Origin: Bradyrhizobium sp.
GTDB lineage: Bacteria > Pseudomonadota > Alphaproteobacteria > Rhizobiales > Xanthobacteraceae
Assembly (NCBI GenBank): GCA_052389815.1
Contig: JBQTHN010000005.1
Span: 112,978-176,977, forward strand
Length of the DNA: 64,000 nt
Reading direction: 5' to 3'
The notes beneath the pieces were generated by a model. That model was not told the DNA's origin and made no database searches. It saw only the letters and a list, made by a program, of their open reading frames with translations. Shown in pieces: positions 45,653 to 63,578 of the stretch (positions within the stretch are counted from its first letter, which is position 1; every line of letters begins with the position of its first letter). The position numbers and the translations under genes are program-made.

Positions 45653-45768
45653 TGAAAATCTTTCCCCAAATGATGCCAAGCGCCTTCATCGCTGCCTCAA
45701 GTCCCGGCGGTATCTGTATTCCTTGTGCTCTGCCATGCCTGTGCCCACCCCTGTTTGGTACAGCTCAC

Positions 45769-46311
45769 TTACTTCTTGGTGAGATTCCGCAGTCTCGCGT
45801 GCAGTAGATTCGCCGGAAGCCGCACCAGCGGGTCGTCCTGCCAAGCGGTAAGGCATTGGATCAGCTTGTGAGCCGTAACGAGGCCCCGGCTGTGGATCTC
45901 ATCGGTGACCCAGAGCACGCCACGAACTTCGCAGCCCTTGGCGACAGCAACAGTGCGCAATTTGCCGTCACCGGTCAGCAGGATCGATTCCTTGAGGTCC
46001 TCGGCAAGGACCAAAGAGAAGCAGTCCTCCGCACTGAGCTTGGCGTTGACGGACTGGATCGCAATGGCTCGGCCAACTTGTCCGGGATCGAGATCAATCT
46101 GTTCCAGACCAGCCCCCGTAAGACGCTGCCAGTCCTTCTCAGTGAAATCGAGAAGCTCATTGTGCGCGACAGGCAAGGCGACCACAAAACGGTAGGGCAG
46201 CTGAAGCATGACTTCAACCAGACCTACCTTATTCAGGTCGATCAGGCAGCTCGCATCATTGATGACGATGCGGCGCGGTTCACTGCTGGCCTTTGACCGC
46301 GCGCTCGACAT
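45769..46311 (-). CDS. PIN-domain protein
   Basis: IVINDASCLIDL, LSAEDCFSLVLA, LLTGDGKLR, RGVLWV. Confidence 0.82.
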   Translation of the reverse strand: MSSARSKASSEPRRIVINDASCLIDLNKVGLVEVMLQLPYRFVVALPVAHNELLDFTEKDWQRLTGAGLEQIDLDPGQVGRAIAIQSVNAKLSAEDCFSLVLAEDLKESILLTGDGKLRTVAVAKGCEVRGVLWVTDEIHSRGLVTAHKLIQCLTAWQDDPLVRLPANLLHARLRNLTKK

Positions 46312-47350
46312 CTGCAATGGGCCGTCTCAACAAGCCGGCAGCCTTGGTTGAGGGGATAATGCCTTCCGCCAACGCGCGATAAACATGAGTCTCGAACCGC
46401 TGAGGCTTTTCCAACCTCGCCGTTTCGCCGTCCGTACTTAGCTCTTCCGGCTCTGACTTAAGCCACGCCCGGGCCGGGGTTCGGAATAGGTTCTTCAAAT
46501 TGGCCTCTGAAATGATTCCGACGTCCTTCAGTCGATATAGCAAGGCCCACATCGATACACCATAAAGGTGTTTGAGCCGAACAAGCTCTTTATAGGCGAA
46601 TGCGGTTCGGCCGGTCCCGACTTCCTCCTTCAGGTGCTCTGCTGGCACCAAGAACGCGCCTGCGAACCGGTCCATCGCCTTTTCAGGTTTGGCTTTCTTG
46701 CATTCGCCGATCAGGGCGTGCGCAAGTTCGTGCGCCAGGGTAAACCTGTTGCGTTCAACGTTGACGTTGCGGCGTACCACGACGCGTATGGGTGGCTTCT
46801 TCGCTGGTCGCTTCACATGGCAGGTCAGCCCATAAAATCCGTCGTGACCGTCGATCTCAATAACCCGCACGTTCCGTTCCTCCAGCAGCGAGGTCATGCT
46901 GGGGATCGGGTCTCCGCCTAGATTCCACTTCTCGCGGAGCCAGGTGGCGCGTTTCTCCGCGTCGTCGAGATCATCGACGTCGACCGGCTTAATTTCATCC
47001 AAATCGCTGGGCTTTTCCGGCAGATCAAGGATGTCCTCGATTGCGAGGTAGCGCTCGATATGGTCGATCACTTCGGCCTCGACCAGCGCGCGCTCTTTTT
47101 CAGACGTGCCAGAGCGCTTGCGAAACTCGACGCCGTCGAGCGCAGTCACCTGATTGCTCATCAGGAAATCCAACGAGACCCCAAGCGCCTGGGCGAGCCC
47201 CACGAGGACGCTCGAACTCGGTAGCATTTCACCCAGCTCGTACTTGTTGATCGCCTGCGGCGTCACCTTCGGGGTCGCCTTCTCCGCCAAGGCCGCCAAC
47301 GACAGTCCGGCCCGCAACCGCGCGAGCCGAAGCCTTTCTCCAAATGCCAT
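46280..47350 (-). CDS. XRE HTH + ImmA/IrrE Zn-metallopeptidase fusion
   Basis: RLRLARLRAGLSLAALAE HTH; RNRFTLAHELAH (HExxH); MDRFAGAFLVP. Confidence 0.9.
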   Translation of the reverse strand: MAFGERLRLARLRAGLSLAALAEKATPKVTPQAINKYELGEMLPSSSVLVGLAQALGVSLDFLMSNQVTALDGVEFRKRSGTSEKERALVEAEVIDHIERYLAIEDILDLPEKPSDLDEIKPVDVDDLDDAEKRATWLREKWNLGGDPIPSMTSLLEERNVRVIEIDGHDGFYGLTCHVKRPAKKPPIRVVVRRNVNVERNRFTLAHELAHALIGECKKAKPEKAMDRFAGAFLVPAEHLKEEVGTGRTAFAYKELVRLKHLYGVSMWALLYRLKDVGIISEANLKNLFRTPARAWLKSEPEELSTDGETARLEKPQRFETHVYRALAEGIIPSTKAAGLLRRPIADVERAVKGQQ

Positions 47351-47537: not shown

Positions 47538-47792
47538 ATGTCCGAGACTGCAGAAAAGGTGAAGACGATCACCATCATCGTGGACGGCACCCCGCACGAG
47601 GTGCCGAAAAAGGAGAAGATCACCTACGCCGAGGTCGTGACGCTGGCGTATCCGGACTATCCGCAGCACCCCGAGATCACCTACTCGGTGACCTACACCA
47701 AGGGTCACCACGAGGGCATTCTGCCGCCGGGCGGCAGCGTCGAGGTCAAGGACGGGATGGAGTTCCGTGTTAATCGAACTGGCCAATCATAA
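47538..47792 (+). CDS. Ubiquitin-like (multi-ubiquitin family) protein
   Basis: ITIIVDGTPHEV..ITYAEVVTLAY..YSVTY..LPPGGSVEVKDGMEFRV; C-terminus TGQS. Confidence 0.85.
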   Translation: MSETAEKVKTITIIVDGTPHEVPKKEKITYAEVVTLAYPDYPQHPEITYSVTYTKGHHEGILPPGGSVEVKDGMEFRVNRTGQS

Positions 47793-48942
47793 CGACGACA
47801 TCCGCCGACTCCTCGAAAAGGGCTATGCCCTGAGGTTCGACAGCGGCTATCTGGTCGTGCGCTACATTCCCTACCTGGACGCCAACAAGGCGCTCCAGGT
47901 AGGGGCGATCGTCACCAAGCTCGTGTTCATCGACAAGATGCGCGTCCAGCAACAGGACCACCAAGTATTTTTCGCCGGGTCGGCGCCACACGGCCTCGAT
48001 GGCCAACCCGTCCCCAATCTGGGCGGCGGTGCCGCGTCACTCGCACTGACCAAGACCGATGTCGTGGTCGAGCGAAGCTTCTCGAACAAGCCGCCGCCGG
48101 GCCACTTCCCCGACTTCTTCGCCAAGATCGAGCACTACCTGAACCTCGTCGGCGGGCCGGCGATGAGCCTCCACGGCTTCAATCCCTTCACGTTCCGGGT
48201 TGACCACGACGTGGTCGCCGATTCGGTGTTCAAGTTTCAGGACACCATGACCAGCCGCGCCGAGATCGGCGATCTCGCTGCCGTTTTCAAGAACGAGGTC
48301 ATTGCGATCATCGGCCTCGGTGGCACCGGCTGCTTCGTCCTGGACTTCACGGTCAAGACGCCGGTCCAGGAGATTCGCGGCTTCGACGGCGACTTCTACT
48401 ACGTCCATAACGCCTACCGCTCGCCGGGCCATCTCGACGAGCAGGATCTCGGCAAGGCCAAGGCTGAGGTTTAACAGCGGCGGTACGAAAACTTCCGCAA
48501 GAATCTCAAGCTGGAGAAGAAGTATATCGACCGCTCGTCGGCCGCCGACCTTCAAGGTGTGACCTTTGCGTTCGTCTGCGTCGACAAAGGCTCGGCGCGG
48601 GCAGAGATCTTCGAGCTGCTGATCAGCCTTGGGATTCCCTTCATCGATGTCGGTATGGGTCTGAACCGGAAGGAAGGGCCACTCGCCGGAACGTTGCGCG
48701 CGACCTACTACCCGCCGGACAAGGCGGCGCAAGTCCGCGACATGCAGCTCGCCGAGCTGGCGGACCATCCTGATGATGAATACCGCGCCCAGGTCCAGAT
48801 TTCCGAGCTGAATGCCATGAACGCCTTCCTGGCGGTCATGCGCTACAAGCAGCTGCGGGGATTCTATCTCGACAAGCAGGCGCCCTTTCACATGCTTTTC
48901 GACACCGCCGAGATCAAGCTGTTCCGCCAGGAGGGGCCGTGA
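47767..48942 (+). pseudogene. E2-like (DUF6791) + ThiF/E1 fusion interrupted by an in-frame TAA at 48472-48474
   Basis: IIGLGGTG, FDGD..HNAYR; the reading continues in the same frame after TAA (QRRYENF..FAFVCVD..ISELNAMNA). Confidence 0.85.
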
Positions 48943-49349
48943 ACACCATCAAGCTTGAGCGGGTCCAGTACATCCCTAAGCAGCTCTCCCCCGGCATTCT
49001 CTATGTGACGGAGCGATATTCCGTGGCCGCGCATCTGTGCGCCTGTGGCTGCGGCAACAAGGTGGTAACCCCTCTTGGTCCCGTGGAATGGTCGCTCTCG
49101 GAAAACGGCGACCTGCCGTCGCTCTGGCCGTCGATCGGGAATTGGCAGCTCCCCTGCCGATCCCACTACATCATCAGCCACGGCCAGATTAACTGGGCGG
49201 GCGCCTGGGCGGACGCGCAGATCCTAGCTGGCCGTCGCGCTGAGGAGCAGCAGCGGCAAGCTTATTATGCCGAGAAGTCTCAGTTGGGTACTTTTGCGAA
49301 GATCTGGGATTGGATATTGCGCGCGATACGGAAATTGTTCGGAGGTTGA
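48939..49349 (+). CDS. DUF6527 family putative metal-binding protein
   Basis: HLCACGCG, SLWPSIGNWQLPCRSHY; GTGA overlap with the E1 stop. Confidence 0.85.
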   Translation: MNTIKLERVQYIPKQLSPGILYVTERYSVAAHLCACGCGNKVVTPLGPVEWSLSENGDLPSLWPSIGNWQLPCRSHYIISHGQINWAGAWADAQILAGRRAEEQQRQAYYAEKSQLGTFAKIWDWILRAIRKLFGG

Positions 49350-49450
49350 ACTCCTCAGGCTCAAGACATCAACCGCAGCTCCGGTCTTCGTTGGCGAAAC
49401 TCCAACGACCATCTATCGCGGTCAGGCGCACAACGGAGCCGCTCTATCTC

Positions 49451-49521
49451 GAACGGAAACGCAGCAAAATCAATGGAACTAGTCGATATCCTGTAGCTCA
49501 AAACGGTCTGGTTGCAGATCC
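49451..49521 (+). repeat. Degenerate att-like copy containing a tRNA(CAT) 3'-half fragment
   Basis: GCAGCAAAATCAA...GCTCAAAACGGTCTGGTTGCAG; 54/71 identical to 63487-63557 by hand alignment. Confidence 0.7.
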
Positions 49522-49677: not shown

Positions 49678-52600
49678 TCAAAGAGCTCTTAACTCGATCG
49701 CGATCTCAAGGTATCTGCAGAACGCATTGGCGAGCTGCATCTGCCTTGGCGTGCGACACTCCGCTTCGAAAAGTCGAGGGGACGCGACGATGAAGCAAAT
49801 GCACTTTGCTCGAGAAGTGGCGACGTTCAGGCGGTTCGCGCTGTAAAGGAATTCCATGCCACGCGGGGCGTCGGAATGGCTTGAGGTCGTCATTGAGTAG
49901 ATGACGATAGGCGCCTCTTGCCCCTGGAATTTATCCACGGTCCCAATGCGTGCACCAGGAATGCGCTCCTGGAGCTCGAATACCTGAGCGTTGTAGGGGG
50001 CGACGATCAGAATATCCTCAAGTCCAATCGATTTCTCTACGCCCTGCCGATCGATCCAAGTGCTGCCGGCATCTAGAATGCTTGAAACGAGGTGTCGAAT
50101 CGCCTCGGCTTCCTCCTTTGCGGAGTTCTGATTACCGGTGTGCTCGATTGGCAGATATCTGAGCCCGGCTCCGCCAAGCCTACCCGTCGACCTGATTTCT
50201 TGCTTTTCAAGTCCTGCGTGCGATCGGAGTCGTCCCTCGTAGAACAGCTCAGAGTTGAAGACGCAGATATCCGGATGCAGCCGCCAGGTCTCCGCCAGGA
50301 ACAGCCCGCGCTCGGGGGGAACGGTCGCGCGTGCTCCGAGGATATGATCGAGCGCCGAGACTGCAACCCCATCAGGGTGGCATCCCTGAATCGGCTGCTC
50401 GAGCTGACGCGGGTCTCCAAGAAGCACGACGCTCTTGGCAGCCTGCGACACGGCAAGAACATCCGCCAACGACATCTGGGCCGCCTCGTCGATGAAAAGC
50501 ACATCTACGCTGAGGTTCGCGTCTGCCCGCGACCAAAAGAACGAGGTCCCACCGCCGACCGCGCATGTCGCGCGAAGAAGATCCAGAGCTTCCTCGTTGC
50601 TTTTCGTCAATCGCAGGGAAGGAAGACTGCTGGTTTCCTTTTCGGAAATCTTGTGAACGCATTGGAGGCACAAATCTGCGGCCGCGGCAGCGGAAATGAC
50701 CTCAGTCAAGAGGTTGCGGATGACCTTGTGACTATTTGCAGTTATTCCGACCCGCTTTCCCTCGCGAACCAGGCTAAGGATCATACGTGCGGCCGTATAT
50801 GTTTTTCCGGCTCCCGGCGGGCCTTGAATCGGAACGACACTCTCATCCAGGGAGACGCCGATACGCTCGGCAGCGGCCAGAGTCGTCTCCCCCGGCCGCA
50901 GCAGCGCCTGTCCTCGCAAGCGAGGGGCCAACCCCAGCAGCAGATCGCGCGCAGCGCGATATTTGCCCGGCCCCTCCATGCCGTTCTCCGCGACGTATTC
51001 TCCGAGGCGAAGAAGAGAACCCGCCTGCTCTGGATGGTCGAACGATTTGTGGGCGAAAACGGCTTCGGGGTGCAAATCGGCGGTATCGCCCCGCTTCTTT
51101 ATGTCGACCGTCCGGTCCTCTTGCGATAGCGTCCACTTCTCCGAAGTGGTCTCCGCCGACGCTCCGCAGCTTGCTTTCCGCACGCACGTCAGTGTCCTGC
51201 TGCACAAACTCGTAGCGATGGATGGGCGCTTTGGCGGTCCCTCCGACGTTTCGGACGAATTTCAAACCGCCGATGCCTGCTCGTTCATGAACAAGATCTT
51301 CGGCCGAAAGGTCGCGGAGTCTGAAGTATTCCCACCAGACGGCCTTACCCTCGCGGCCGTGCCAATCGAGCATGAACGCGAGCAACCACCTTGAGTGCTG
51401 CTCCTTGCTTCGTTGAGTTACGTCGTCGGGTATGCCGTCGAGCAACCGCGAGGCCACGGCTTGCACTCTTGCCAACCAAGCATCACGCTTGGGACTGATC
51501 TCGGCCTCTTTGGGTACCGGCCGTTCGATGGTCTCGCCTACCGCGAGGAGCTCGGTCCGCAAGGATTCCAGCCAGTTCCGGAGAGCCTCCGTAGAGGTGC
51601 AGTCATCGCGATTGTAGCCTTTGATCGCCTCTTTGTGCTCCGTTGGAACGTGGGCGTCATCGGCCGTTTCCAACCGCGCCTGCGTTCTGGCGAGCACGGC
51701 CGCGACCTCCTCCAACGGTACGCTTCGTGCGAACGAATAGAGCGGCTCCAGCTTCTTGATCGAATAACTCTCCACGCTCGCGCGGATGGCGTGGCGTACG
51801 ACCGAATAGAGGTCAACGAAGACCTCCGAGCGAAGAAGATCGTCCAGTTCCCTTTCCCGCGTCGCGTATCGGCCCATCAATCGCTTCAACGCGGCCGGCT
51901 CATAAGGAGCGAAGTGATAGATATGAAGGTCGGGAAAGATTTTGCGTCGCTCTGTGACGAAGTCGATGAAGCGCTCGAACGCGACCCTTTCTTCGTGTCG
52001 CGCGGATGCCCAGTCACCGACGTATCGAGGTAAGTCGTCATCGCCATTGAAGAGGTATCCGAACAGAAACTCCAACCCTCCTTCTCCGACGAAAGGATCA
52101 CCCTCGAAGTCAAAAAAGATATCGCCGGGACAGGGTTCGGGAAGTCTTGAGAGCCCGAAGCCCGGCTTCGGCGGGAGTGCTTCGTAGAGCACTGCGCCCT
52201 GGGTCCGGCCTTCGACCTGTATCCTCGCCTGTTCGCGAACGTTTTCGTAACTGCGAGCAGCACCGCGATCCGGCCGCCACTGCAATGGCAACGGCAACTC
52301 GGCAAGCGCCGCCATAGTCGTCACGCCGTGCCGCTCGAGCTCTCCGATCTGCAATTTACTTATTCCCGCGACGAGCGACATATGATCGTCAGCTCGTCTC
52401 CTTTCGTCGCAGTGCCGGCGCCACCTGCAGATGTCGCAGTGCTCGACGGGTTCGGGATATGCATAGGCCGTGCTCGGAGAAGCGACGGAACGCTCGAGAC
52501 TATTCCTGACGTGCCGATAATAGGCTGAATAGTCTGCGATCCTGTACTCAACCGGAACGAAGTCGGCTGCCGGCGTGACGACGTAGGCCATGGCCGGTCG

Positions 52601-53083
52601 CGTGGCTTGCATTTCCGCGAGCAGGTCGGAGTAAAGGCAAATCTGAAGGACCGTATTTCCTTTGGTTTCCCGCGCGAGCTTCGTGTCGGTCACCTCATAC
52701 GACCAACCGCCGAAGCGGCTCGGCGTATCGACCCGACGCAAGACGTCCGCACGTCCATTCCATCTTCCCGCCTCGAGAGCCCCCTGCACGATGACGGCAT
52801 CACCGCGCTCCATGGCTGATATGGTCGCGGCCACAGCAACACCGTCTACTCCGACGCCGTCCACGACCGTTACGCTTAAGCCGCCGCCCTTGAGATGGTC
52901 AACGTAGCTTCGTTCATGCAGCGCGCCGCGCTCGGCGAGCGTCGCAAGCACCGGGTCCCACACCTTCGGTTTCTGCAGCTGGCCATTGGCCACCTTCAGA
53001 TCAAGTTCCGTCAGATACCGGCAGTTCAGGTGGCCGACCAGATCGCAGGCGCTCAGCTTGATGCTTCCCCCGATGCTCTGCAT
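49678..53083 (-). pseudogene. TM0106-family RecB-like nuclease + SF1 (DNA2/NAM7-like) helicase, frameshifted at ~51125
   Basis: DTKLARETK..QICLY; FFDFEG RNaseH-like segment; GPPGAGKT, IDEAAQM, GDPRQL, DKFQGQE, NVATSRA in a second frame. Confidence 0.82.
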
Positions 53084-53231
53084 GCGCCCACTTGTGTCGG
53101 CTAAGCCGCCCTTCTCGTCCTTTCCGAGTCGCCTTAATCCCAATTCCCTAGGAACTCCTAGGAAATGCACTCGAAAAAGGCGAGTAAGATAGCTTATAGT
53201 CGCGCGGAACGAGTACAAGGGGGCTTGGTCG

Positions 53232-55061
53232 GTGCGCGATAGTTCGGTGGAAAGAGCCAGATGGCTCCGCGATTTGCTGCGTTTTCTGCCCCTCCGTAGC
53301 CAATTCGTCCTCTCGGGCAATACCCGGGACCTTCAGATGCACGAGATTGCTCCAGGCGAGGTGACGGCAACGCCACTATCCAGGGTCCTGCCGGACCGCT
53401 TGAAGGAAGCTGGCTATGCGCGTATCGCAAGCTTCGACCTTCTGAACGGATTTAGAGGGATCGAACCGGCCGACGGAAGCTTCCTGACGCAGTTGGGTCT
53501 GACGCCGACCAACGGAGCGGCCGCCGGCGGCATTGACCTCTTATCGGCCACCCTCGAAAGGCATGTCGGCGCGGAAGGGTTGCCGGTGGCGCTCATCGTC
53601 GATTTCGCGTCGAGGCTGGTCGCGCGAAACGAGGCGCTGTCGCCGGCCGAACACCAGCTTTTCTCTCGGGCTCTAATCCTCTCGCATTCGGCACGCGCGC
53701 GGCCGGCCGGCGAAAGACGCCTCCCCTACTTCAACACGATCGTCTGGATCGTCGACAAGGAGGGGGATCTGCCCGACTGGTTCCTGGTCGGAAACCCGAG
53801 GATACGACACATACCCATCGGACGCCCGGATCACGTGGCGAGAAGAAGCATGATCCGCTCCCTGGTGCGCGGCTTACCAGGCGCGCAGAAGGCGGAGCAG
53901 TGCGAACTGGACAAGTGCACCCAAGCATTCGTGGACGAGACGGAAGGCCTTCTGCTGTTAGATCTAAGCGCGGTCGCGCAGCTCGCCCGCAGCGAAGGAG
54001 TCCAGTTTGATCGGATTGCAGATGCGGTTCGACGGTTCAAGGTCGGTGTGACCGAGGATCCTTGGCGTAAGATCAGTCGCGACAAGATCAGCTCGGGTGA
54101 AGAATTTGTGAGAGGGCGCGTCAAGGGACAGTCGCATGCCGTCACCCATATGCTGGACATCGTCAAGCGCGCGGTTACCGGGATCGGTCAATCCCCTAGA
54201 GGCGGTCGACCAAGAGGTGTCGTCTTTCTCGCGGGGCCGACTGGGGTCGGCAAGACGGAACTCGCGAAGACAATCACAAGTCTGCTGTTCGGTGACGAGA
54301 GCGCCTATATCCGATTCGACATGTCGGAGTTCAGCGCCGAGCATTCGGATCAGCGGCTCATCGGCGCTCCTCCCGGCTACATCGGTTACGACGTCGGCGG
54401 CGAGCTCACAAACGCGATCCGCGAGAAGCCGTTCAGCGTCGTCCTATTCGACGAAATCGAGAAGGCTCACCCGAGAATTCTGGACAAATTCCTGCAGGTT
54501 CTCGACGACGGCGTTCTCACCTCCGGAAGAGGCGATCGCGTCTATTTCTCGGAAGCCTTCATTGTCTTCACGTCGAACTTGGGCATCTACGTGCCGGGGC
54601 CGTCGGGCGAAAGGATCGCCAACGTGACGCCCGAAGAGACGTTCGAAGGGGTAAGGAGAAAAGTCCGAAGCGAGATCGAAAAGCACTTCAAGCAGGTCCT
54701 CAATCGGCCTGAGATACTGAACCGCATCGGAGAGAACGTCATCGTCTTCGACTTCATCCGGCCCGACGTCGCCAACGAGATCTTCGATCATATGGTCAAC
54801 AACCTGCTCAGCGACGTCAAATCGCTAGGCTATGACGTGACACTGACAGAAGGCGCCCGCGAAGGACTTCGAGGATTGTGCTTGGCGGACCTTTCGAACG
54901 GCGGCCGAGGCATCCGCAATCAGGTCGAATCTCACCTCATCAACCCGCTATCGCGGGGCCTTTTCGACAGCGGAGCAGAAGCTGGACGCAGATACAGGAT
55001 CGAAGGGGTCCGCCCCGGTGCATCGACGACGATCGACCTCGTGAGCGAGCACTCTCCATGA
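53232..55061 (+). CDS. AAA+ ATPase with a ClpB-D2-like C-terminal module and a degenerate N-terminal module
   Basis: AGPTGVGKTELAK, RFDMSEF, RLIGAPPGYIGY, LFDEIEKAHP; no Clp N-domain and no Walker A in the N-terminal half. Confidence 0.88.
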   Translation: MRDSSVERARWLRDLLRFLPLRSQFVLSGNTRDLQMHEIAPGEVTATPLSRVLPDRLKEAGYARIASFDLLNGFRGIEPADGSFLTQLGLTPTNGAAAGGIDLLSATLERHVGAEGLPVALIVDFASRLVARNEALSPAEHQLFSRALILSHSARARPAGERRLPYFNTIVWIVDKEGDLPDWFLVGNPRIRHIPIGRPDHVARRSMIRSLVRGLPGAQKAEQCELDKCTQAFVDETEGLLLLDLSAVAQLARSEGVQFDRIADAVRRFKVGVTEDPWRKISRDKISSGEEFVRGRVKGQSHAVTHMLDIVKRAVTGIGQSPRGGRPRGVVFLAGPTGVGKTELAKTITSLLFGDESAYIRFDMSEFSAEHSDQRLIGAPPGYIGYDVGGELTNAIREKPFSVVLFDEIEKAHPRILDKFLQVLDDGVLTSGRGDRVYFSEAFIVFTSNLGIYVPGPSGERIANVTPEETFEGVRRKVRSEIEKHFKQVLNRPEILNRIGENVIVFDFIRPDVANEIFDHMVNNLLSDVKSLGYDVTLTEGAREGLRGLCLADLSNGGRGIRNQVESHLINPLSRGLFDSGAEAGRRYRIEGVRPGASTTIDLVSEHSP

Positions 55062-55711
55062 CCACGACAGTCAATCTGTCCCGCATCCATTTCCCCGTCA
55101 CGACTTTGGGACCCGGCCGAAGGATCGGGATATGGTTTCAAGGCTGTTCGATCCGCTGCCCGGGATGCATCTCCATGGATACGTGGACACACGGGCGAGG
55201 GACGACGACTATAGCTGAGGTCGTCGACGCTATTTCACCTTGGCTTTCGACGGCAGACGGAATCACGGTCTCAGGCGGGGAACCTTTCGACCAGCGCGAG
55301 GCTTTGTTCGAGCTTCTGGCGCGGCTCCGAGCTCTAACGGCGGCGGACATCCTCGTCTTTACCGGCTATCCTTGGATCACAATCTCCGAAGCGATCTCTT
55401 CCCGGCCGCCTCTGATCGACGCGATCGTCACCGAGCCATTCGATATCGATGAGAGGCAAACTCTGGCGCTTCGCGGCAGCGACAATCAGCAACTGCACAT
55501 GATGACCCCTTTGGGTCGGGCTCGGTTCGAGAGCTTCGACCGCACTATCGACGAAAGCGATCGCAGCTTCGACGTGATGTTCGACGAAAACGGAGATGTC
55601 TGGCTTGCGGGCATTCCCGCTCGCGGCGATTTCCGGCGCCTGCGAAATATCCTCGAAGACGGCGGGTCGACACTTGGAATTTCGGAAGATAAGCGATTCC
55701 CATCTCACTAG
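55058..55711 (+). CDS. Short radical SAM protein (NrdG-activase-like, 4Fe-4S)
   Basis: TTLGPGRRIGIWFQGCSIRCPGC (CxxxCxxC), ITVSGGEP, RGSDNQ; ATGA overlap with the AAA stop. Confidence 0.9.
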   Translation: MTTTVNLSRIHFPVTTLGPGRRIGIWFQGCSIRCPGCISMDTWTHGRGTTTIAEVVDAISPWLSTADGITVSGGEPFDQREALFELLARLRALTAADILVFTGYPWITISEAISSRPPLIDAIVTEPFDIDERQTLALRGSDNQQLHMMTPLGRARFESFDRTIDESDRSFDVMFDENGDVWLAGIPARGDFRRLRNILEDGGSTLGISEDKRFPSH

Positions 55712-55721
55712 AATTTTGCTG

Positions 55722-58700
55722 ATGATCAGACTTTGCCCGAACTGCAATACCGAACGGCCTGTCACTGAAATCTTCTGTGAAGGCACGTTGAATGGCCAAA
55801 ACTGTGGCTGGGACCTGTCGGCGGTCGATATAACGTCGCCTGGAGCACCCGGACCGAGGCCGAATCCTCCAGAGGTTGCTCCGAGCCAGCCGACATGCCG
55901 GAACGGTCATCAGGGATCTCCCGGGGATCTCATCTGCAGCGTGTGTGGCGAGCCGATCATCGAACCGGGCGAGACACCCTCACCGATCGACACCGAGCCT
56001 GGGCCCGAGCCCGAGCCGGAGGCCGAAACAATAGTAGACGGTTGGCGTCTACAGGACCGGATCGTCTCATCGAGCGTCGTCCGCGAGCGCTTCGTCGCCA
56101 CGCGCGACTCCGACGGACGGCGTGGAATACTCACACTTTACGCACCCGGCTCGGAGCCGGATCAAGCGATCTACGATCTGCTCTCGAAGCTCCCCCGAGA
56201 TCACGTTTCCGAGCTCTTCGCCACCGGTCGTTGGCAAGACCGTGCCTACGACGTCGCGGAGGAATTCAGCGGCGGCACGTTGGCGGATTTCGCCATCGAT
56301 CCTGTCGATCAGGCGGCAATAAGGAAGCTGGTCGGCGAGCTCGCGCAGGCCGTTCATGCACTCGCCGAAGCCGGATTGCGGCACAGGGATCTGCGGCCTT
56401 CGGTCATCTTCATGCGCTCGAGGGACCCGCTGGACCTCGTCATCGGAGGGTTTGGATCCGCACGACTTTCCGAGTTCGATCTGGACATCGTGTCCCCTCT
56501 CGAGACCACCCGTTACATGGCTCCGGAAGCGATCGCCGGTGGCGTCGCTCCGGCTTCCGACTGGTGGAGCGTGGGAATGATCTTGCTGGAAAAGATCACC
56601 CAAGGCGCGTGTTTCGAAGGTGTCAACGAACAGGCCTTTCTGATCCACGTTCTCACCAACGGCGTACACCTTCCTGAAAACCTGGACGAACGGATCGACA
56701 CCTTGCTGCGCGGCCTTCTGGCACGTGACAGACGCCAGCGGTGGCAGTGGACGGAAGTTCAGGCGTGGCTGCAGGGTGAGACGGTATCCGCTCCCGCAGC
56801 CGAAACGCCAGGCGTTACCGAGGGCCGCATTTCGATCTCGCTAGGTGATAAGCAATATCGCTCTGCAAACATGTTCGCTTTGGCGGCGGCGGAAGCGGCG
56901 AATTGGGAGCAGGCCAAAGCTCTTGTTCTCAGAGGCGCAGTCGCGAGTTGGGCTTCCGAGGCCGGCTTCGAACCGGCAATGTCGGCGGGCCTGCGGCAAA
57001 TCCTGCGAGCCGAGGATCTTCAGGAGGACTTGAAGCTCTCCATCTCCCTGAAGACGCTTAATGCTTCGATGCCCCTGATCGTCAGAGGCAATATCGTCAC
57101 GCCGGGTTGGCTGCTCGATCATCCGACCGACGGTTATAGCCTGATCACCGGTCCGGCACCCGACCTGCTTCGGAAGATCGATCCGGACGACTGGCTCTGG
57201 CGTCTCAAGGTCCGGTCGGACACAGTTCGAAAGCGACTCGACCAACTGGAAATCGCGGTCGACGAGGATGCCCTGCGCGTCCACCTTCTGTCGACGTCGA
57301 TGGCCCGCCTAGTCGCTCTCTGGGAGGAAAAGCGAAGGCTTTTTCCTGACACGGACCATGCCGGCGTAGCTGCGCTGACCGAACGCCGCCTTTCGGCCGA
57401 AGAAGACCTGGTCATCCTGCTCAGCGCGATGTCGAACCAGTTCCGCTCCGTCGCCGAGGTTATCGAAGAAGCGACAAAGGAAGCGTCGACCGCGGGACTT
57501 GGCGATTTTTCGCCCGAGAAAGCTACAGCTCTTCTCGCCCGTCCGCGTCGCGAAATCTACGAGACGATCGACGAGCGTATTCGGAACTTTGCAAGATGCG
57601 GCATCAAGGAAGCCGACGAATGGGCGGATCAGTTTCGCCTCGACAGGCGGATGTCCATAGGGCGCGCTCTCGCCCTCCTCTCCGTGCCGGCTGAAAGGTG
57701 GAGACCGCTTCCAAAGCAAGGCTACGTATCCACGATCCTGGATTTCTTCGCCAAGCGCATATCGGGTGGGGTCCTACGGGGACCACTGACGCGGATGCTC
57801 ATCGGCAAATCGGCCCGGATCGATCTCACCGAACTCGACACCTCCAGGGTACCGGCGGCGCAAATTCTCGATCAACTGCTCGGTCGGACGAACCGCATTG
57901 TGAATGTCGATCCCGCAGCCTTCGCCGACGACGACGGCTTGGAGCGAAGGTTGCGGTCGCTGCACTCTCACGCGTTGCTCTACAAACGCGACACCGGCAT
58001 CGATGGCCTGTATATGGGATTTCCATTTCTCATCATGCGCGATAGCCGGCCGACCGCGAGACCGCGGATCGCGCCGGTGCTGCTGTGGCCGATGCGCGTC
58101 AATCCCGAAGTGGGAAACCGCGGTCACATCACTCTGGGATTTGGACGCGAAAGAAATCCCGATACAGAGATCGAACACGTCGTCATCAATCCCGCCCTCG
58201 AAGGTATTGTAGGTATCCCAGAAGCAAGACGATGGCAGGAAGCGGCGAACGAGCTTCTTACCCATGCAAGCGTGTCCGTCCAGGCGGTAATGGATGCCTT
58301 TAGCCGGTTGGCCCAGCCAGCCGGCAATGAACTGGTAGCTCTTCCTGGCAAGGACGTCACAGTGGGCTCGCAAGAGCGCCAGCTCGTGCCGGCGGCCGTG
58401 CTCTTCCATCTGGCGTTCATGGGGCAAGCGGTAATGAAAGACCTCGAGACGCTCCGAGGGTCACCGCCGACGGCGACGGCGCTCGAGGCCGCACTGCGTC
58501 TGAACGAACAGCAGGTGACGCCTTCATCGCCGCAAGTGAAGGAGGTCGACCGATACTTCACTGCCGACAGCGATCCTTCACAGGAGGCGGCCGTGATCGA
58601 AGCGCGTCAGGCTCCGGGGTTGGTGATCGAAGGACCGCCCGGCACGGGCAAGAGCCAGACGATTGTCAATATGGTGGCGGACGCCATCGGCACAGGAAAA

Positions 58701-61700
58701 TCACTCCTCGTCGTTTGCCAGAAGCAAGCCGCGCTCGAAGTCGTGCGGAAGCGTTTAGAGAAGGAACGTCTGGCGGATCGCTTCGTCATGATCACCGACG
58801 TCAATCGCGATCGCGAGCCGACCGTCAGTGCGGTCCGTTCGCAGGTGCAAGCATTGCACAACCTGCCTCCCGGAAGGACCCCGGCCTGGAAGCGAGAACG
58901 CGAGCGACTGGCGGTGCGCATCGAGACGCTGGAGGCAGAGCTGGATCGCCGCCAAACTGCGCTTCACTCCGTGGACGATCGGACGGGATTGTCATATCGG
59001 GCGCTACTGGGCGAGCTATTGGAACTCGAAGAAGGCAGTCCGAAGCCCATCGATGTTCCTGAACTCCGACCTTTACTTTCGGATCTGCATCCCACAGACG
59101 TCGTGAGCATCGAAGAGAATTGCGGCCCATTGGCGAAATTCTGGCTGCCGGCCAAATTCGAGGACAATCCCCTTTCCGCTCTCAAGCCGTTCAACCCCGA
59201 TCGCGGAACGGCAGCCGCCCTCGCCTTGCATCTGCAAGGGTTTTTGGAGGTGGACGCACGGCGCGAAGCGACCGATGTGGAGACATCGGATTGCCTGAAA
59301 ATATCGGATTCGATGGCCTTGCAGACGTGGCTCATCGAAGCGGACGATCTGCGCTTTATTAGCGCTTCTGTATGCTCGAATCTCGCTCGATTGCGTCCGC
59401 TGTTCCGGAGCGCGGATGGCGGGGCTTCGCAAGCTATGCACGTGCTCGACGGGTTACTACAGATCAAAGAGATATTCTCGTCGCTCGACGGTCCATCCTA
59501 CAAACCGAACTTTTCCTCAAAGCTCGTCGGTTTGAACGGGGAAGAGTTGCGGTCCATCGCGGAACTCGCGGACCGAGTTCGTTCGCCGGGAAGCGGCCTA
59601 CGATGGATGAACCCGCTACATTGGATGCGAAAGCGCCGTGTGCAAGGCTTCCTTTCATCATTGCAGCTCCCGCAAGATATCCATGGAGTCAGCTCGCTTT
59701 ATTACGCGGCCGAGCTTGAGCTGGCCGTGCGCGGACCGAGACGCGAACTGGCGGAATACTTTATGATCCTTTTCGGCCGAGCCCCCAATCTTGATGTGTC
59801 GCCTGGAAAGCTCGCCGATTTCGCCGAAAGCATTCATTCGTTTCTCGCCGGACTAAGCGGTCACAATTCGCTCATCGATCGGTGTCCGAGCCTGGCCGAT
59901 CTCGAAAGAGCCGTCGCGACCGGAAGAATCGAAGAACTCGCCTCATTCTTTGAACGAGGCGATCGAGCGCTCCGAAGGCATGAGGCGAGAGAGGAAAGCC
60001 GCGCCTCGCTGAACCGGCTCAGGACCTACTTCGACGAACTCTGGCTCGGATCGAGACGCTCGGCGATAGAGAATGGACGCTCGAACGCGAGCGCCGTTGC
60101 CCAGATCGTGCAGGCCTTACCGATGCTCACCAACTACCAGGAATTCCGGCTTCGATCCGCGCGCCTCGACGACAAGGAGCGTGCCATCTTCACCATTCTC
60201 AGGTCCAGGGAATCCGAGTTGTCGAACTTACCGACTGACGACCTAGATTCCTGTATTCGCGCCACGATAGGGCGCGAGGCTCGTCTGGAATGGAAAGCGT
60301 CAATGGAATACCAAAATCCAGACGTACTGTTCGACGGCAATGAGGTCGAGACGAAGGTAAAGTCACTGGCGGAAGCCGACACGCAGATCCGGCACTACAA
60401 CAGAGAGCTTCTCGTCCAAGGTATAGATGCCGGAAAAGTGCGTCCGACATCCGAATGGGATGCGATCACAAGACTGCGCGGCCCGAGAGCACTGCGATTG
60501 CGCGAATTCATCGATCGCTCCGTTCCGCTCGGTCTCCTCGCTCTCCGCCCGGTCTGGCTGATGACGCCGGACGTCGCCAGCCGCGTGCTGCAACCTCGAG
60601 CCGGGCTCTTCGATACCGTCATTTTCGACGAGGCTTCACAGATGCCGGTGGAATATGCCCTGCCATCCCTGTTCCGGAGCAAGCTTGTCGTCGTCAGCGG
60701 CGACGAAAAGCAGATGCCACCAACCTCCTTCTTCGCGAGCAAGGTCGAAAACGACGAAGCGGCGATCTTCGACGGTGAAGAACCCGAAGAAGGGGCGACA
60801 GAAGAGGAGCGCGAGGCGTTCGCCGAGACCTGGAATCGACGTGAGATTAAGGATTGTCCCGACCTTCTTCAGCTTGCCCGTTCGGTGCTCCGGACCCGTA
60901 CTCTGCAGGTTCATTACCGATCGAAGTATCGGGAGCTCATTTCCTTCTCGAACGCATCGTTCTACGCCAATGGCCTCAGCGTCCCCGTACGCCATCCCGA
61001 AGAAACCATTCGAAAGCTCAAGCCCATCGAAGTGGTCCGTTCGGAGGGCACGTACAAGAGCCAGACGAACCAGAAGGAAGCGGCCGATGTCGTGGAATAC
61101 CTCTCCGAGCTTTGGGATGATCCTTCACCTCCATCGATCGGGGTCGTTACGTTCAACCGCAAGCAGGCCGATGCCATCGAAGATGCTTTGGAAGATCGTG
61201 CCGAGAACGATGAGGCATTTCGCGACGCATTGATGCGCGAGCGCGAGCGTACCGAGAATGGCGAGGATATGGGCTTCTTCGTCAAGAACGTGGAGAACGT
61301 GCAAGGCGACGAGCGTGACGTCATCGTCTTCTCGACGACATTCGGTCGCAACGAGCATGGCACTTTCCGCAAGAGCTTCGGCGCGCTGGGGCACGCAGGC
61401 GGCGAACGGCGCCTAAACGTCGCTGTAACGCGTGCCCGAGAGAAGGTGGTCATCGTCACGTCCATGCCGATATCAGAGATATCGGATTTATTGACGAGAC
61501 GGAGCGGTCCCAGGGTTCCACGCGACTATCTGCAAGGCTACCTCGAATATGCCAGGACCGTCTCCGATGGCTTAGGACAGTCGGGCAAGACTCTCTTGGA
61601 GAGGATGGTGACTGAACAGCATGCCCATCACGAAGAGGGCAATCACGAGGACGACGGTTTCACCAAATCCGTCGAAGCCTTCCTGGAGGCGAATGGCTGG

Positions 61701-61982
61701 AAGCCCAGCAGGGCCCGCGACGGCGGCGCATTCAGCATCGATTTTGCGGTGACCGATCCCCGGACCGGTCTCTACGCGATAGGCGTGGAATGCGATGCAC
61801 CACGCCATCGATTGCTGGAGAGGGCTCGCGCCCGCGAGATCTGGCGTCCCAAGGTGTTGGGAAGAGCCGTCCCTTACGTGCACCGGGTTTCGTCGTATGC
61901 TTGGACTCACGCCGGAGACGCTGAACGACTGCGGCTCAAGAATGCCGTAGAAAACGCGCTCCGTGGGGGAGAATTGCAATGA
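55722..61982 (+). CDS. 2086-aa fusion: Zn ribbons + kinase-like domain + DUF4011-like + SF1 helicase + C-terminal restriction-endonuclease-like domain
   Basis: CPNC and CSVC ribbons; HRDLRPS, GFGS, YMAPE; LYMGFPFL..APVLLWP..NPAL; GPPGTGKSQT, FDEASQM, VQGDERD, RLNVAVTRAR; IDFAV..GVECD. Confidence 0.88.
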   Translation: MIRLCPNCNTERPVTEIFCEGTLNGQNCGWDLSAVDITSPGAPGPRPNPPEVAPSQPTCRNGHQGSPGDLICSVCGEPIIEPGETPSPIDTEPGPEPEPEAETIVDGWRLQDRIVSSSVVRERFVATRDSDGRRGILTLYAPGSEPDQAIYDLLSKLPRDHVSELFATGRWQDRAYDVAEEFSGGTLADFAIDPVDQAAIRKLVGELAQAVHALAEAGLRHRDLRPSVIFMRSRDPLDLVIGGFGSARLSEFDLDIVSPLETTRYMAPEAIAGGVAPASDWWSVGMILLEKITQGACFEGVNEQAFLIHVLTNGVHLPENLDERIDTLLRGLLARDRRQRWQWTEVQAWLQGETVSAPAAETPGVTEGRISISLGDKQYRSANMFALAAAEAANWEQAKALVLRGAVASWASEAGFEPAMSAGLRQILRAEDLQEDLKLSISLKTLNASMPLIVRGNIVTPGWLLDHPTDGYSLITGPAPDLLRKIDPDDWLWRLKVRSDTVRKRLDQLEIAVDEDALRVHLLSTSMARLVALWEEKRRLFPDTDHAGVAALTERRLSAEEDLVILLSAMSNQFRSVAEVIEEATKEASTAGLGDFSPEKATALLARPRREIYETIDERIRNFARCGIKEADEWADQFRLDRRMSIGRALALLSVPAERWRPLPKQGYVSTILDFFAKRISGGVLRGPLTRMLIGKSARIDLTELDTSRVPAAQILDQLLGRTNRIVNVDPAAFADDDGLERRLRSLHSHALLYKRDTGIDGLYMGFPFLIMRDSRPTARPRIAPVLLWPMRVNPEVGNRGHITLGFGRERNPDTEIEHVVINPALEGIVGIPEARRWQEAANELLTHASVSVQAVMDAFSRLAQPAGNELVALPGKDVTVGSQERQLVPAAVLFHLAFMGQAVMKDLETLRGSPPTATALEAALRLNEQQVTPSSPQVKEVDRYFTADSDPSQEAAVIEARQAPGLVIEGPPGTGKSQTIVNMVADAIGTGKSLLVVCQKQAALEVVRKRLEKERLADRFVMITDVNRDREPTVSAVRSQVQALHNLPPGRTPAWKRERERLAVRIETLEAELDRRQTALHSVDDRTGLSYRALLGELLELEEGSPKPIDVPELRPLLSDLHPTDVVSIEENCGPLAKFWLPAKFEDNPLSALKPFNPDRGTAAALALHLQGFLEVDARREATDVETSDCLKISDSMALQTWLIEADDLRFISASVCSNLARLRPLFRSADGGASQAMHVLDGLLQIKEIFSSLDGPSYKPNFSSKLVGLNGEELRSIAELADRVRSPGSGLRWMNPLHWMRKRRVQGFLSSLQLPQDIHGVSSLYYAAELELAVRGPRRELAEYFMILFGRAPNLDVSPGKLADFAESIHSFLAGLSGHNSLIDRCPSLADLERAVATGRIEELASFFERGDRALRRHEAREESRASLNRLRTYFDELWLGSRRSAIENGRSNASAVAQIVQALPMLTNYQEFRLRSARLDDKERAIFTILRSRESELSNLPTDDLDSCIRATIGREARLEWKASMEYQNPDVLFDGNEVETKVKSLAEADTQIRHYNRELLVQGIDAGKVRPTSEWDAITRLRGPRALRLREFIDRSVPLGLLALRPVWLMTPDVASRVLQPRAGLFDTVIFDEASQMPVEYALPSLFRSKLVVVSGDEKQMPPTSFFASKVENDEAAIFDGEEPEEGATEEEREAFAETWNRREIKDCPDLLQLARSVLRTRTLQVHYRSKYRELISFSNASFYANGLSVPVRHPEETIRKLKPIEVVRSEGTYKSQTNQKEAADVVEYLSELWDDPSPPSIGVVTFNRKQADAIEDALEDRAENDEAFRDALMRERERTENGEDMGFFVKNVENVQGDERDVIVFSTTFGRNEHGTFRKSFGALGHAGGERRLNVAVTRAREKVVIVTSMPISEISDLLTRRSGPRVPRDYLQGYLEYARTVSDGLGQSGKTLLERMVTEQHAHHEEGNHEDDGFTKSVEAFLEANGWKPSRARDGGAFSIDFAVTDPRTGLYAIGVECDAPRHRLLERARAREIWRPKVLGRAVPYVHRVSSYAWTHAGDAERLRLKNAVENALRGGELQ

Positions 61983-63334
61983 GCGGACCCAAAGCATTCA
62001 GGATCGTTACCCGCGCCGAAATCATCGCCATCTGTCGTCGCAGTCTCGCCCGGCTCGACGCCGCGATAGAAACCTGGGCTTCCGCCGGTAGACGCAATGG
62101 GACGATCGAGCAGCAGGACATCGAAAAGGTCACAGCGCGACGGGACGAGCTTCGTCGCTTGCTCGACGCCGACCGCTTCGTCGAATTACAGAAACAAGTC
62201 GCGGGCGAGATCGCCTTCCTCCAAGCGGACTCCGAACGCCGGGTCGAAAGGGCCGCCGAAATCGTGGCCCGCTCGAAGCGCGATTTAAGACGTTCCAAAA
62301 CCGCAGCCGAGGCGTTGCTGCATAGATTGCATGTTCTGAAAGTCGATATACCCGCCGATATCCGAAGCGAGCTCAGTGGATCGACCGCATCTTCAGAGCG
62401 CCTGGAAGCGGCCATGGCCAAGGCGCTGATGTTGCTTCCTTCTCAGGAGGCACCAGATGCCACGACAGATCGGCAACGGCAGCTTGCCGCCAAGCTCAGC
62501 GCTGGGGAGCGCCGCGAAACGTTGCAAGAGTGGCTCTTCCGACAACCGCGGGAGATGGAGGATCCGGCCTTGGCGCGCGTCGATGCCCTTCTCGGCGAGC
62601 TGCGCGGGCTTGGGATCGATTCCGGCCCATTTTCGGCCCACGTTGCGGCTCTGGAAGCAGAGCCACCGGCGAGAAGATCGCTAATCGCGGATAGTCTTCT
62701 GTTGGACCTGGCTACGGCCGTCAAGGATGGCCGAGCCCGTACACGACTGGTGAACCAGCTTCGCGAGCGACGCGCTGAACTCTCGGAGATGAAGTCACCG
62801 GAGGCGGCATCGCTGCTGGCCGAAATCGATAGTGCGCTTGCGATACCTTCGGCCAGTGACGAGCAAGAACTCGTCAAGCGAGCCGACTTTCTCATTGAGG
62901 AAGAATTCAAGGCGATGGCGGCCGAAGAGCGCAGGCGTGCTGTGCTCGAGGGACTCGCCAGCCTAGGGTACGAGGTGTCCGAGGGAATGGCGACCGCTTG
63001 GGTACAGAACGGTAAGATCGTTCTGCGTAAAGCAGCCAATCCTGGCTATGGAGTGGAGCTTTCGGGCGGATCGAAATCGGATCTTCTCCAGGTTAGGGCC
63101 GTGGGCATTGGCAGTTCGGCCGAACCTCGTGATGCCAACCGTGACCGGGACATGGAAACGATTTGGTGCGGCGAGTTCGATCGGCTGAAGGGATTGGTCG
63201 CAAAAGCAGGTGGAAATGTTTCGATCGAGTCCGCTCGACCTGTTGGCCAGTTCCCTCTAAAGATCGTGTCAGATCCGGGTGCAAGCCATGAGGCGGTGGT
63301 GGTCGAAAGATCACATCGATCACTACCTTACTAG
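61979..63334 (+). CDS. Helical/coiled-coil protein with an alpha/beta C-terminus, last gene of the AAA-rSAM operon
   Basis: MSGPKAFRIVTRAE..; ATGA overlap with the helicase stop; no catalytic motif recognised. Confidence 0.8.
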   Translation: MSGPKAFRIVTRAEIIAICRRSLARLDAAIETWASAGRRNGTIEQQDIEKVTARRDELRRLLDADRFVELQKQVAGEIAFLQADSERRVERAAEIVARSKRDLRRSKTAAEALLHRLHVLKVDIPADIRSELSGSTASSERLEAAMAKALMLLPSQEAPDATTDRQRQLAAKLSAGERRETLQEWLFRQPREMEDPALARVDALLGELRGLGIDSGPFSAHVAALEAEPPARRSLIADSLLLDLATAVKDGRARTRLVNQLRERRAELSEMKSPEAASLLAEIDSALAIPSASDEQELVKRADFLIEEEFKAMAAEERRRAVLEGLASLGYEVSEGMATAWVQNGKIVLRKAANPGYGVELSGGSKSDLLQVRAVGIGSSAEPRDANRDRDMETIWCGEFDRLKGLVAKAGGNVSIESARPVGQFPLKIVSDPGASHEAVVVERSHRSLPY

Positions 63335-63486
63335 CCAGCTTTGACTAGGCCGCTGGGTCGATGGATCGCGATTCGCACAAAACTTGTGCGGGCCCGGCCA
63401 CACTGACAGCGAGGGGCTTGTCGTCGGCCGCACCAGTTTCGCACCAGAAACGACCTCATCAAAGCGTAACGAACGCGATCGAACTC

Positions 63487-63578
63487 AAACGAAAATGCAG
63501 CAAAATCAACGAAGGCGATCGATAGTCTGCCGCTCATAACGGTCTGGTTGCAGGTTCAAGCCCCGCGCAGCGCTCCAT
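63487..63578 (+). repeat. att-like site: element arm plus degenerate 3' half of tRNA(CAT), probably Ile2/Met type
   Basis: CCG-CTCATAA-CGG anticodon arm, GCAGG-TTCAAG T-arm and decayed 3' end ..CTCCA; no 5' half present. Confidence 0.75.

Follow-up and report, generated by a model that had tools for sequence, protein, structure and literature searches.

A conserved four-gene operon encoding a ClpB-like AAA+ protein, an activase-type radical SAM enzyme and a Hhe-related helicase-nuclease: a possible multi-component defence system

The operon described here lies in a 64,000-nucleotide stretch of DNA from Bradyrhizobium sp. (contig JBQTHN010000005.1, positions 112,978 to 176,977), and we refer to this whole stretch as the window. 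Translation of the window gives four intact open reading frames (ORFs), all on the + strand and all at the coordinates first assigned to them in a preliminary description of this DNA. Gene A (53232-55061, +) starts with GTG and encodes a 609-amino-acid (aa) Hsp100-type AAA+ protein, and gene B (55058-55711, +) encodes a 217-aa radical S-adenosylmethionine (SAM) enzyme of the glycyl-radical-enzyme activase type. Gene C (55722-61982, +) encodes a multidomain protein of 2086 aa, presumed to be a sensor-effector, and gene D (61979-63334, +) encodes a 451-aa protein whose family is not recognised in the libraries searched. Genes A and B share an ATGA overlap at 55058-55061, genes C and D share another at 61979-61982, and a 10-bp gap separates the stop codon of B (TAG, 55709-55711) from the ATG of C at 55722, which confirms the layout first proposed. 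The mechanical ORF of C opens at 55596; the true start is at 55722, because 69 of 76 C homologues begin at the methionine of the motif MIRxCPNC. The four proteins measure 604-623 (A), 211-229 (B), 2060-2117 (C) and 436-462 aa (D) across related loci. All four products of the window copy are of family-typical length, and this copy is therefore intact. PGAP gives the operon genes generic names only.

The four genes are found together in nearly all loci that can be evaluated. A search seeded from D identified relatives of D in 209 of about 185,000 species-representative genomes, which is a lower bound. Synteny was assessed in the 80 best genome loci and three further contigs, and a locus was counted as evaluable when it contained enough upstream DNA. 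In 77 of 77 evaluable loci seeded from D, genes A-B-C-D are present at full length, in the same order and on the same strand. The reverse search, seeded from B in metagenomes, gave 552 relatives, and among the best 80 that were kept, 64/64 loci contain A, 59/59 contain C and 47/49 contain D. Of the two loci that lack D, one has decayed, leaving C as a 467-aa stub of zinc ribbons and pseudokinase (L100, 10648-12051). The other carries a long C variant of 2569 aa that reaches the contig end and whose C-terminal half has no AAA_12 or MTES_1575 match (L135, 2845-10554). The ATGA overlap is kept in 45/79 loci at the A/B junction and in 69/79 loci at the C/D junction, and the pairwise divergences of the four proteins correlate with r of 0.89-0.96. 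When the window copy is compared with three Bradyrhizobium relatives, the ratio of nonsynonymous to synonymous substitution rates (dN/dS) is 0.06-0.18 for every gene, indicating purifying selection. Mean pairwise identity is 0.67 for A, 0.57 for B, 0.55 for C and 0.41 for D. Because the same genes, lengths and order recur in every evaluable related locus, the cluster goes far beyond what chance would give. Together, A, B, C and D make up an obligate, co-inherited and translationally coupled unit. The preliminary description had suggested such a unit and named co-occurrence across genomes as the check, and the suggestion is borne out by the synteny, the overlaps, the reverse search and the correlated divergences. 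A conserved fifth gene was also considered and rejected, as 133 flanking genes are spread over 129 Pfam families.

Upstream of A, a promoter-like site, TCGAAA-18-TATAGT (53171..53200, +), was found by a consensus scan and by comparison of the upstream regions of relatives. Bradyrhizobiaceae copies keep CTCGAAA-N17/18-TATAGTCGC at the same position. An inverted repeat, TTCCCTAGGAACTCCTAGGAAA, lies directly upstream of the promoter-like box (region 53144-53200). Bradyrhizobiaceae copies keep both the repeat and the box; copies from other lineages keep neither and carry -10-like boxes of their own. The related loci that we compared show lineage-specific promoter-like boxes only, and no upstream motif common to all lineages that could be a shared operator. 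Internal promoters and terminators in the operon do not exceed the shuffled expectation, and neither an Rfam family nor a tRNA predicted by ARAGORN is found in or beside the operon.

Protein C is made up of several domains. Its N-terminus carries two zinc ribbons (55734..55946, +; ligands C5, C8, C19, C28 and C59, H63, C72, C75), and across 76 homologues each of the eight ligands is invariant or almost invariant. The zinc ribbons are followed by a kinase fold (56031..56771, +; Pfam Pkinase, E 5e-20, matched from profile position 52 on). The HRD motif of this fold is kept in 71/76 homologues, and the DFG motif has become GFG, with G in 66/76 and D outside the four commonest residues at this position. 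In the same homologues, the VAIK lysine and the glycine-rich loop are absent from the N-lobe region (aa 104-150). Because GFG replaces DFG and both the VAIK lysine and the glycine-rich loop are missing, the sequence indicates that the kinase fold is a conserved, catalytically dead pseudokinase, as first suggested. A DUF4011 core follows (57927..58109, +; aa 736-796; Pfam 30.9 bits against a cut-off of 22.2), with the motif YxRDTGIDxLxLGFPFL...LLWP conserved within a conserved middle region. Domain 1A of a superfamily 1 (SF1) helicase (58542..58841, +; AAA_11/AAA_19 matches) contains the Walker A motif GPPGTGKSQTIVN with K977, which is invariant in 76/76 homologues. A poorly conserved insertion of ~550 aa (aa ~1040-1590) splits the helicase and separates domain 1A from motifs II-VI (60519..61496, +; DEASQ, SGDEKQMPP, VENVQGDERD and RRLNVAVTRAR; AAA_12, E 6e-22), which are invariant in the family. 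At the C-terminus is a Vsr/DUF559-like PD-(D/E)xK nuclease (61653..61946, +; REase_MTES_1575, Pfam PF18741, E 1e-14), in which D2007 is invariant and 74-75 of the 76 homologues retain E2023, D2025 and H2029. The DUF4011, AAA_11, AAA_12 and MTES_1575 matches are all above their Pfam cut-offs. Profile searches with Pfam, NCBIfam and PADLOC agree with the earlier domain calls for A, B and C. The earlier link between the effector half of C and the anti-phage protein Hhe also holds, with E 3e-104 in NCBIfam and E 4e-73 in PADLOC, and extends to ProA and PDC-S37. In the reading that we favour, C would be the effector of a defence system.

Protein A is related to class-1 Hsp100 proteins through one half of its sequence. 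It matches Pfam AAA_2 (E 2e-44) and NCBIfam ClpB (248 bits against a cut-off of 1232, covering aa 255-589 only), and in a comparison with PDB sequences it matches the D2 domains of ClpC1/ClpB at E 1e-56, with ClpB, ClpC and ClpA matched over the D2 half only. This half (aa 327-500), as judged from motifs and homologues, is an intact second tier consisting of a ClpB-D2-type motor followed by a D2-small domain. The Walker A motif GPTGVGKT (aa 335-342; 54234..54257, +), the pore loop GAPPGYVGYD, the Walker B motif VVLFDEIEKA and the sensor 2 motif NGGRGIRN are invariant in 78 homologues. Together with the AAA_2 match, these motifs support the earlier call of a single intact ClpB-D2-type module. 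The first tier (aa ~10-290) is degenerate, with SGNxRD in place of the P-loop and with D124 and N168 kept. The N-terminal 290 aa are as conserved as the motor tier and are predicted to form an alpha/beta domain with a helical lid. Sequence inspection and profile searches found no ClpP-binding [LIV]-G-[FL] loop, no Clp N-domain and no M-domain in A. With Foldseek, a structural model of A aligns with two-tier ClpC/ClpB/ClpA over ~650 columns at E 3e-18; we note that this model was built from a shallow alignment and that its motor tier (tier 2) has a predicted local distance difference test (pLDDT) score below 50. An internal duplication in A was rejected, as hhalign found no similarity between tier 1 and tier 2 (probability 0.2%), and the two-tier reading therefore rests on the low-confidence model and the Foldseek alignment. 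With this qualification, our reading of A is that of an Hsp100 protein whose intact ClpB-D2-type threading motor sits on top of a dead first tier.

The properties of A also allow another arrangement, in which the operon acts by abortive infection. After licensing, A would kill as the effector by unfolding essential proteins of the host or phage; C and D would serve purely as sensors, and B would sense redox state or SAM level. This arrangement would suit the observations that no component is more conserved than A, whose threading motor is fully intact, and that Dodola and PDC-M37, two defence systems, contain ClpB-like proteins. However, C keeps every helicase and nuclease catalytic residue family-wide, which would not be needed in a pure sensor, and we regard the arrangement as very improbable. 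In our preferred reading, C would remain the effector and A would act on a partner protein.

Protein B is a small radical SAM enzyme, as first described. It matches Pfam Fer4_12 (E 3e-23), and its best NCBIfam match is NrdG (E 1e-22; 80.6 bits against a cut-off of 126.1), with PFLA at 53.8 bits against a cut-off of 231.75. A profile built from 38 homologues matches the structure of the pyruvate formate-lyase activating enzyme (PFL-AE; 3c8f) at E 5e-13, and the alignment spans the GPGxR loop, CxxxCxxC, DTW, SGGEP and GSDNQ. The CxxxCxxC motif for the [4Fe-4S] cluster and SAM (C30, C34, C37; 55145..55168, +) is invariant in 38/38 sequences, and the GPGRR loop and SGGEP (the GGE SAM motif) are likewise invariant. 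The protein consists of a PFL-AE/NrdG-like core (aa 14-148) and a conserved C-terminal extension of ~65 aa. QueE is a much weaker relative, at E 3e-4 in the profile search and 7e-5 in NCBIfam. Judged by these sequence features, B is a radical SAM activase of the PFL-AE/NrdG type with no target recognised. The only invariant pairs of glycine and an aromatic residue in the other proteins are G61-Y62 and G73-F74 in A, G471-Y, G766-F and G1979-F in C, and G330-Y331 in D, and these pairs are no more than leads to a target of B.

A different substrate for B would also be compatible with defence. B may act on a nucleotide or on DNA or RNA, either making a modified nucleotide in the manner of viperin or marking host DNA. 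In that case, the target of C would be invader nucleic acid that is unmarked or stalled, and the part played by A would be limited to assembling or recycling the complex. Many helicase-nuclease systems tell modified from unmodified DNA, B is weakly similar to the nucleotide-modifying enzyme QueE, and the scan of A, C and D did not find a protein target motif. Viperins alone among radical SAM defence enzymes have a small-molecule product that is known (PMC13128918). On the other side, B is far closer to PFL-AE/NrdG than to QueE in both searches (5e-13 vs 3e-4 by profile; 1e-22 vs 7e-5 in NCBIfam), it keeps the GPGxR loop, and its 217 aa correspond to the short, open barrel typical of activases. 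A threading unfoldase would also have no obvious role in such a scheme. We consider a nucleotide or nucleic-acid substrate unlikely and return to a protein substrate in the reading that we prefer. In the PFL-AE structure, the GPGxR loop contacts the protein substrate.

Protein D has no family in Pfam, NCBIfam, PADLOC, PHROGs or PDB sequences. Its own family comprises 899 clusters at 50% identity, all of ~450 aa. The AlphaFold2 (AF2) model of D has a pLDDT of 85 and a predicted template modelling score (pTM) of 0.76, and in it a strand at the N-terminus is followed by a long helical stalk and then by an alpha/beta domain at the C-terminus. A Foldseek search with this model returned nothing significant, with best E values of 0.31 in PDB and 0.09 in BFVD. 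The N-terminus MSGPK..R..T..E (aa 1-14) is invariant, the helical stalk (aa 12-328) is the most variable part, and the C-terminal domain (aa ~330-430) carries the invariant residues L329-G330-Y331, E360, Q371, E393 and C397. DSSP assigns a strand to residues 2-10 of the model and places all other strands within 346-430. In this model, the C-terminal sheet is probably completed by the MSGPK N-terminus, so that the protein would have the shape of a head on a stalk. D had been described as a helical protein, which is correct for the stalk and leaves out the N-terminal strand and the alpha/beta domain.

The operon occurs in Alpha-, Beta- and Gammaproteobacteria, including Bradyrhizobium, Rhizobium, Sphingomonads, Burkholderia and relatives, Pseudomonas and Lysobacter. 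It is also found in Acidobacteriota and Chlamydiota and in metagenome-assembled genomes (MAGs) assigned to Verrucomicrobiae, Gemmatimonadales and Bacillota. Eleven copies are on megaplasmids, and searches of 50,697 phage genomes and of 2.9 million viral contigs gave no copy. We note that one copy from a MAG labelled Bacillota (L075, GC 0.67) is nearly identical in layout and identity to a Sphingomonas copy (L071), and that one from a MAG labelled Verrucomicrobiae (L058) is nearly identical in the same respects to two Chlamydiia copies (L047/L054). Both taxon labels may stem from mis-binned contigs instead of indicating real transfers.

The window copy of the operon is part of a defence island, together with SIR2, RmrA and ThiF/DUF6527 genes, a UvrD-like helicase and a RecB-like nuclease-helicase. 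The UvrD-type helicase (39465-41582, +) matches the PADLOC model RTasHel (DRT-associated, E 6e-75) and also GajB, and no partner gene for it was identified in the window. A 597-aa SIR2_2 protein (43886-45679, -) is a full-length match, at 723 bits, to the PADLOC candidate PDC-S65. Next to it is a protein with a helix-turn-helix and a peptidase M78 domain (45769-47350, -), which matches RmrA of Rosmer at E 2e-44; an overlapping 182-aa ORF downstream of this match belongs to no family and could be a toxin partner candidate. The next cluster (47767-49349, +) comprises a DUF6791-ThiF (E1-like) gene, a 127-aa ORF and a DUF6527 gene. The ThiF match stops where its 235-aa ORF ends (profile positions 19-78 of 238), and the gene may be frameshifted or truncated.

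The divergent neighbour of the operon (49678..53083, -) encodes, according to Pfam, a RecB-like PD-(D/E)xK nuclease with RNase_H_2 and an SF1 helicase. This gene is frameshifted near 51120, which results in the overlapping ORFs 50843-53083 and 49678-51207. An intact version of 1167 aa lies directly downstream of D in another locus (L022), and a similar gene adjoins the operon, on either side, in ~12/80 loci (~15%), so that the association is recurrent and not obligatory. The helicase pseudogene and the operon together form a 14-kb segment bracketed by direct repeats. The left repeat, of ~80 nt, is at 49440..49517 (+), and the right repeat is at 63476-63553, within a feature that extends to 63577 (63476..63577, +). 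The two repeats are ~80% identical and have an exact 16-mer in common, and the window contains no further copy. On the right, the repeat leads into a stretch resembling a tRNA 3' end, with T-arm, acceptor strand and CCA (63553-63577), for which ARAGORN calls no tRNA and Rfam gives no match. The repeats and the tRNA-like end may be the remnant or scar of an integration site. Elsewhere, the flanks of the operon include integrases, insertion sequence (IS) elements, ZacA, ThsB, AbiEi and methyltransferases, and they are unrelated between lineages. One metagenomic Bradyrhizobiaceae contig (L001) carries HxsD and an Hxs radical SAM gene of the anti-phage system HXS, divergently oriented, just upstream of the operon (1-777), and a DEAD helicase and a RES-domain gene downstream of it.

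The right flank of the Pseudomonas aeruginosa defence hotspot cDHS1 is the same operon. The P. aeruginosa copy encodes proteins of 627, 212, 2098 and 449 aa with the same Pfam content in the same order, and it is followed by mobile-element genes. Johnson et al. described a hypothetical gene of small size, a large gene with DUF4011 and a radical SAM protein as the core right flank of cDHS1 (PMC10250203). In that paper, the genes serve as boundary markers only, are given neither a function nor the status of a system, and the AAA+ gene is unmentioned (PMC10250203). The annotation of strain PAO1 appears to split the large gene into PA2727/PA2728 (PMC4918941, PMC3697988), as matched by annotation and not by sequence. 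No database model and no searchable paper treats the operon as a system, and a paper defining the name ProA was not found in the literature. The earlier statement that no characterised system has this composition therefore stands for the databases and literature searched, with the amendment that the cluster is already in print as the unnamed flanks of cDHS1 (PMC10250203).

Taken together, homology, the defence island in the window, the patchy distribution with variable flanks and the position beside cDHS1 indirectly favour a role in defence, and we consider such a role somewhat probable for an operon that we know here from its sequence, homology and context. For the fuller reading, our judgement is evenly balanced: the operon would be an undescribed multi-protein system against invading DNA such as phages and plasmids, with C as the effector, D as its partner, and A and B performing a radical modification. 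The preliminary description had proposed a multi-component machine for defence or stress, with an unfoldase and radical chemistry gating a Hhe-like effector. Its four-gene unit and its Hhe-related effector half are retained, and defence itself is what we infer. In the fuller reading, C would be a sensor-effector that translocates on and cuts nucleic acid like Hhe, ProA and PDC-S37, and its pseudokinase and zinc-ribbon N-terminus would be a regulatory or sensing module. D, translated from the overlap with C, would be a stoichiometric partner of C, either an inhibitor or an adaptor, and its variable stalk would be a candidate surface for sensing the invader. B would belong to those radical SAM enzymes that act on proteins and would accordingly modify a partner, abstracting a hydrogen atom from a protein and not from a small molecule. 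A would unfold or thread this protein partner so that the target segment reaches the active site of B; alternatively, A may remodel the complex afterwards. The covalent change, which could be a backbone radical, a cleavage or a crosslink, would arm or fire the helicase-nuclease. We regard control of the effector by unfoldase-assisted radical modification as speculative and, on balance, doubtful.

A more specific form of this mechanism would be an immune switch based on a protein radical. The orphan activase-type B, having lost its partner in metabolism, would install a backbone radical on a protein of its own system, with the Hsp100 protein exposing the segment concerned. Candidate sites are the G61-Y62 loop in the dead tier of A, L-G330-Y331 in D and the N-terminal SGPK of D. 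Aerobic cells would turn the radical into a site-specific backbone cleavage or crosslink, thereby licensing the helicase-nuclease irreversibly. We think this version improbable.

Several observations weigh against the reading of the operon as a radical-controlled defence system. Pfam finds no Gly_radical domain or PFL-like match in A, C, D or the window neighbours, a motif scan finds no glycyl-radical loop RVxG[FYW] in A, C or D, and the invariant G330-Y331 of D sits at a helix cap in the model and not at the tip of a beta-finger. Glycyl radicals are oxygen-labile, yet the hosts of the operon are mostly aerobes. Neither B (in PADLOC and PHROGs) nor D (in all libraries searched) matches a defence family. 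A is 56-68% identical across phyla, the flanks often consist of common housekeeping genes (TonB receptors, transporters and dehydrogenases, for example), and the right-flank genes of cDHS1 are reported in every P. aeruginosa isolate (PMC10250203); both this degree of conservation and this ubiquity are atypical for fast-turnover defence genes.

The last of these observations would suit an operon with no role in immunity, that is, a machine for genome maintenance or stress that removes, for example, DNA-protein crosslinks or stalled complexes. The unfoldase would strip or unfold the protein, the helicase-nuclease would process the DNA, and the radical SAM enzyme would repair or sense radical or redox damage. 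SF1B helicase-nucleases such as Dna2 act in repair, and Ku genes lie near the operon on a Rhizobium plasmid. The core status of the operon in P. aeruginosa, the strong purifying selection, the high conservation of A across phyla and the housekeeping flanks point the same way. However, the operon is found in at least 209 of ~185,000 species representatives, scattered over six or more phyla, and so sparse a pattern is what an accessory module that moves horizontally would show. Anti-phage proteins are the nearest named relatives of both C and A, the window copy lies amid defence genes and is bracketed by direct repeats, decayed copies exist (L100), and C of PAO1 is annotated as two ORFs. Overall, we find a maintenance role unlikely and retain defence as the favoured role.

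Should the operon prove to be a defence system, the known catalogue gains a widespread architecture of strictly four components, two of which, a protein-radical activase and the D family, are without counterpart in known immune systems. The operon is present in 209 or more species representatives, in more than 550 metagenomic loci and, reportedly, in every P. aeruginosa isolate, and phage-therapy work on this species would need to reckon with such a core system. If the proposed mechanism is true, an orphan branch of the glycyl-radical activase family gains a function in aerobes, and a ClpB-like unfoldase with a dead first tier gains a defined client. The radical switch, if true, would be the first case in which protein radical chemistry runs an immune or conflict system, and the activase family would for the first time be put to a use outside metabolism. 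These hypotheses are directly testable, because P. aeruginosa PA14 and PAO1 carry the operon beside the best-studied defence hotspot of the species.

Each component can be compared with known proteins and systems. A resembles class-1 Hsp100 proteins (ClpB/ClpC/ClpA) in its D2 Walker A and B motifs, GYVG pore loop, sensors, D2-small domain and two-tier fold, and it differs from them by a first tier without a P-loop and by the lack of an N-domain, M-domain and ClpP loop. It also matches the ClpB-like defence components DolB of Dodola (E 3e-16) and PDC-M37B (E 9e-29). In PADLOC, these matches are limited to the AAA core (aa 331-450), and the partners in these systems, DolA (DUF6414) and PDC-M37A, have no match in B, C or D. 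B shares with the glycyl-radical-enzyme activases PflA and NrdG the GxGxR loop, CxxxCxxC, DTW, GGE and GSxNQ motifs and the small size. It differs from them in scoring under every equivalog cut-off, in having an invariant Leu in place of D16 of PFL-AE and Ser in place of N38, in its extra C-terminal domain of ~65 aa, and in its mostly aerobic hosts.

The only precedent that we found for the proposed logic is the anti-phage system HXS (HxsABCD), also made up of four genes, where a protein effector is matured covalently by radical SAM enzymes (PMC13128918). These enzymes are of the SPASM type with twin clusters, and the effector is a periplasmic HxS-repeat protein that keeps DNA from entering (PMC13128918); HXS has no AAA+ protein, helicase or nuclease. 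The similarity of B to HxsC is marginal (E 0.003), and the operon contains neither a SPASM domain nor an HxS-repeat protein.

The closest likeness is to single-protein helicase-nucleases. C shares with Hhe (NF042953) the DUF4011 core, the SF1 AAA_11/AAA_12 helicase with a long insertion and the C-terminal Vsr/MTES_1575-type nuclease. Its score against this model is 349.6 bits with a cut-off of 2000, and only aa 1543-2066 (~520 aa) align, to profile positions 1195-1670. C adds two zinc ribbons and a pseudokinase to this arrangement, and unlike Hhe, which acts alone, it is always accompanied by A, B and D in evaluable genome loci (77/77). The best-scoring named relatives of C are ProA (NF058533, E 7e-151) and PDC-S37 (E 1e-146). 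Against ProA, C scores 504.6 bits with an equivalog cut-off of 1500; aa 937-2081 align to profile positions 637-1708 of 1903, and the N-terminal 936 aa are unmatched. For PDC-S37, a single-gene candidate in PADLOC, C covers profile positions 283-1342 of 1550. We judge the operon to be a new multi-component variant of these helicase-nuclease defence systems.

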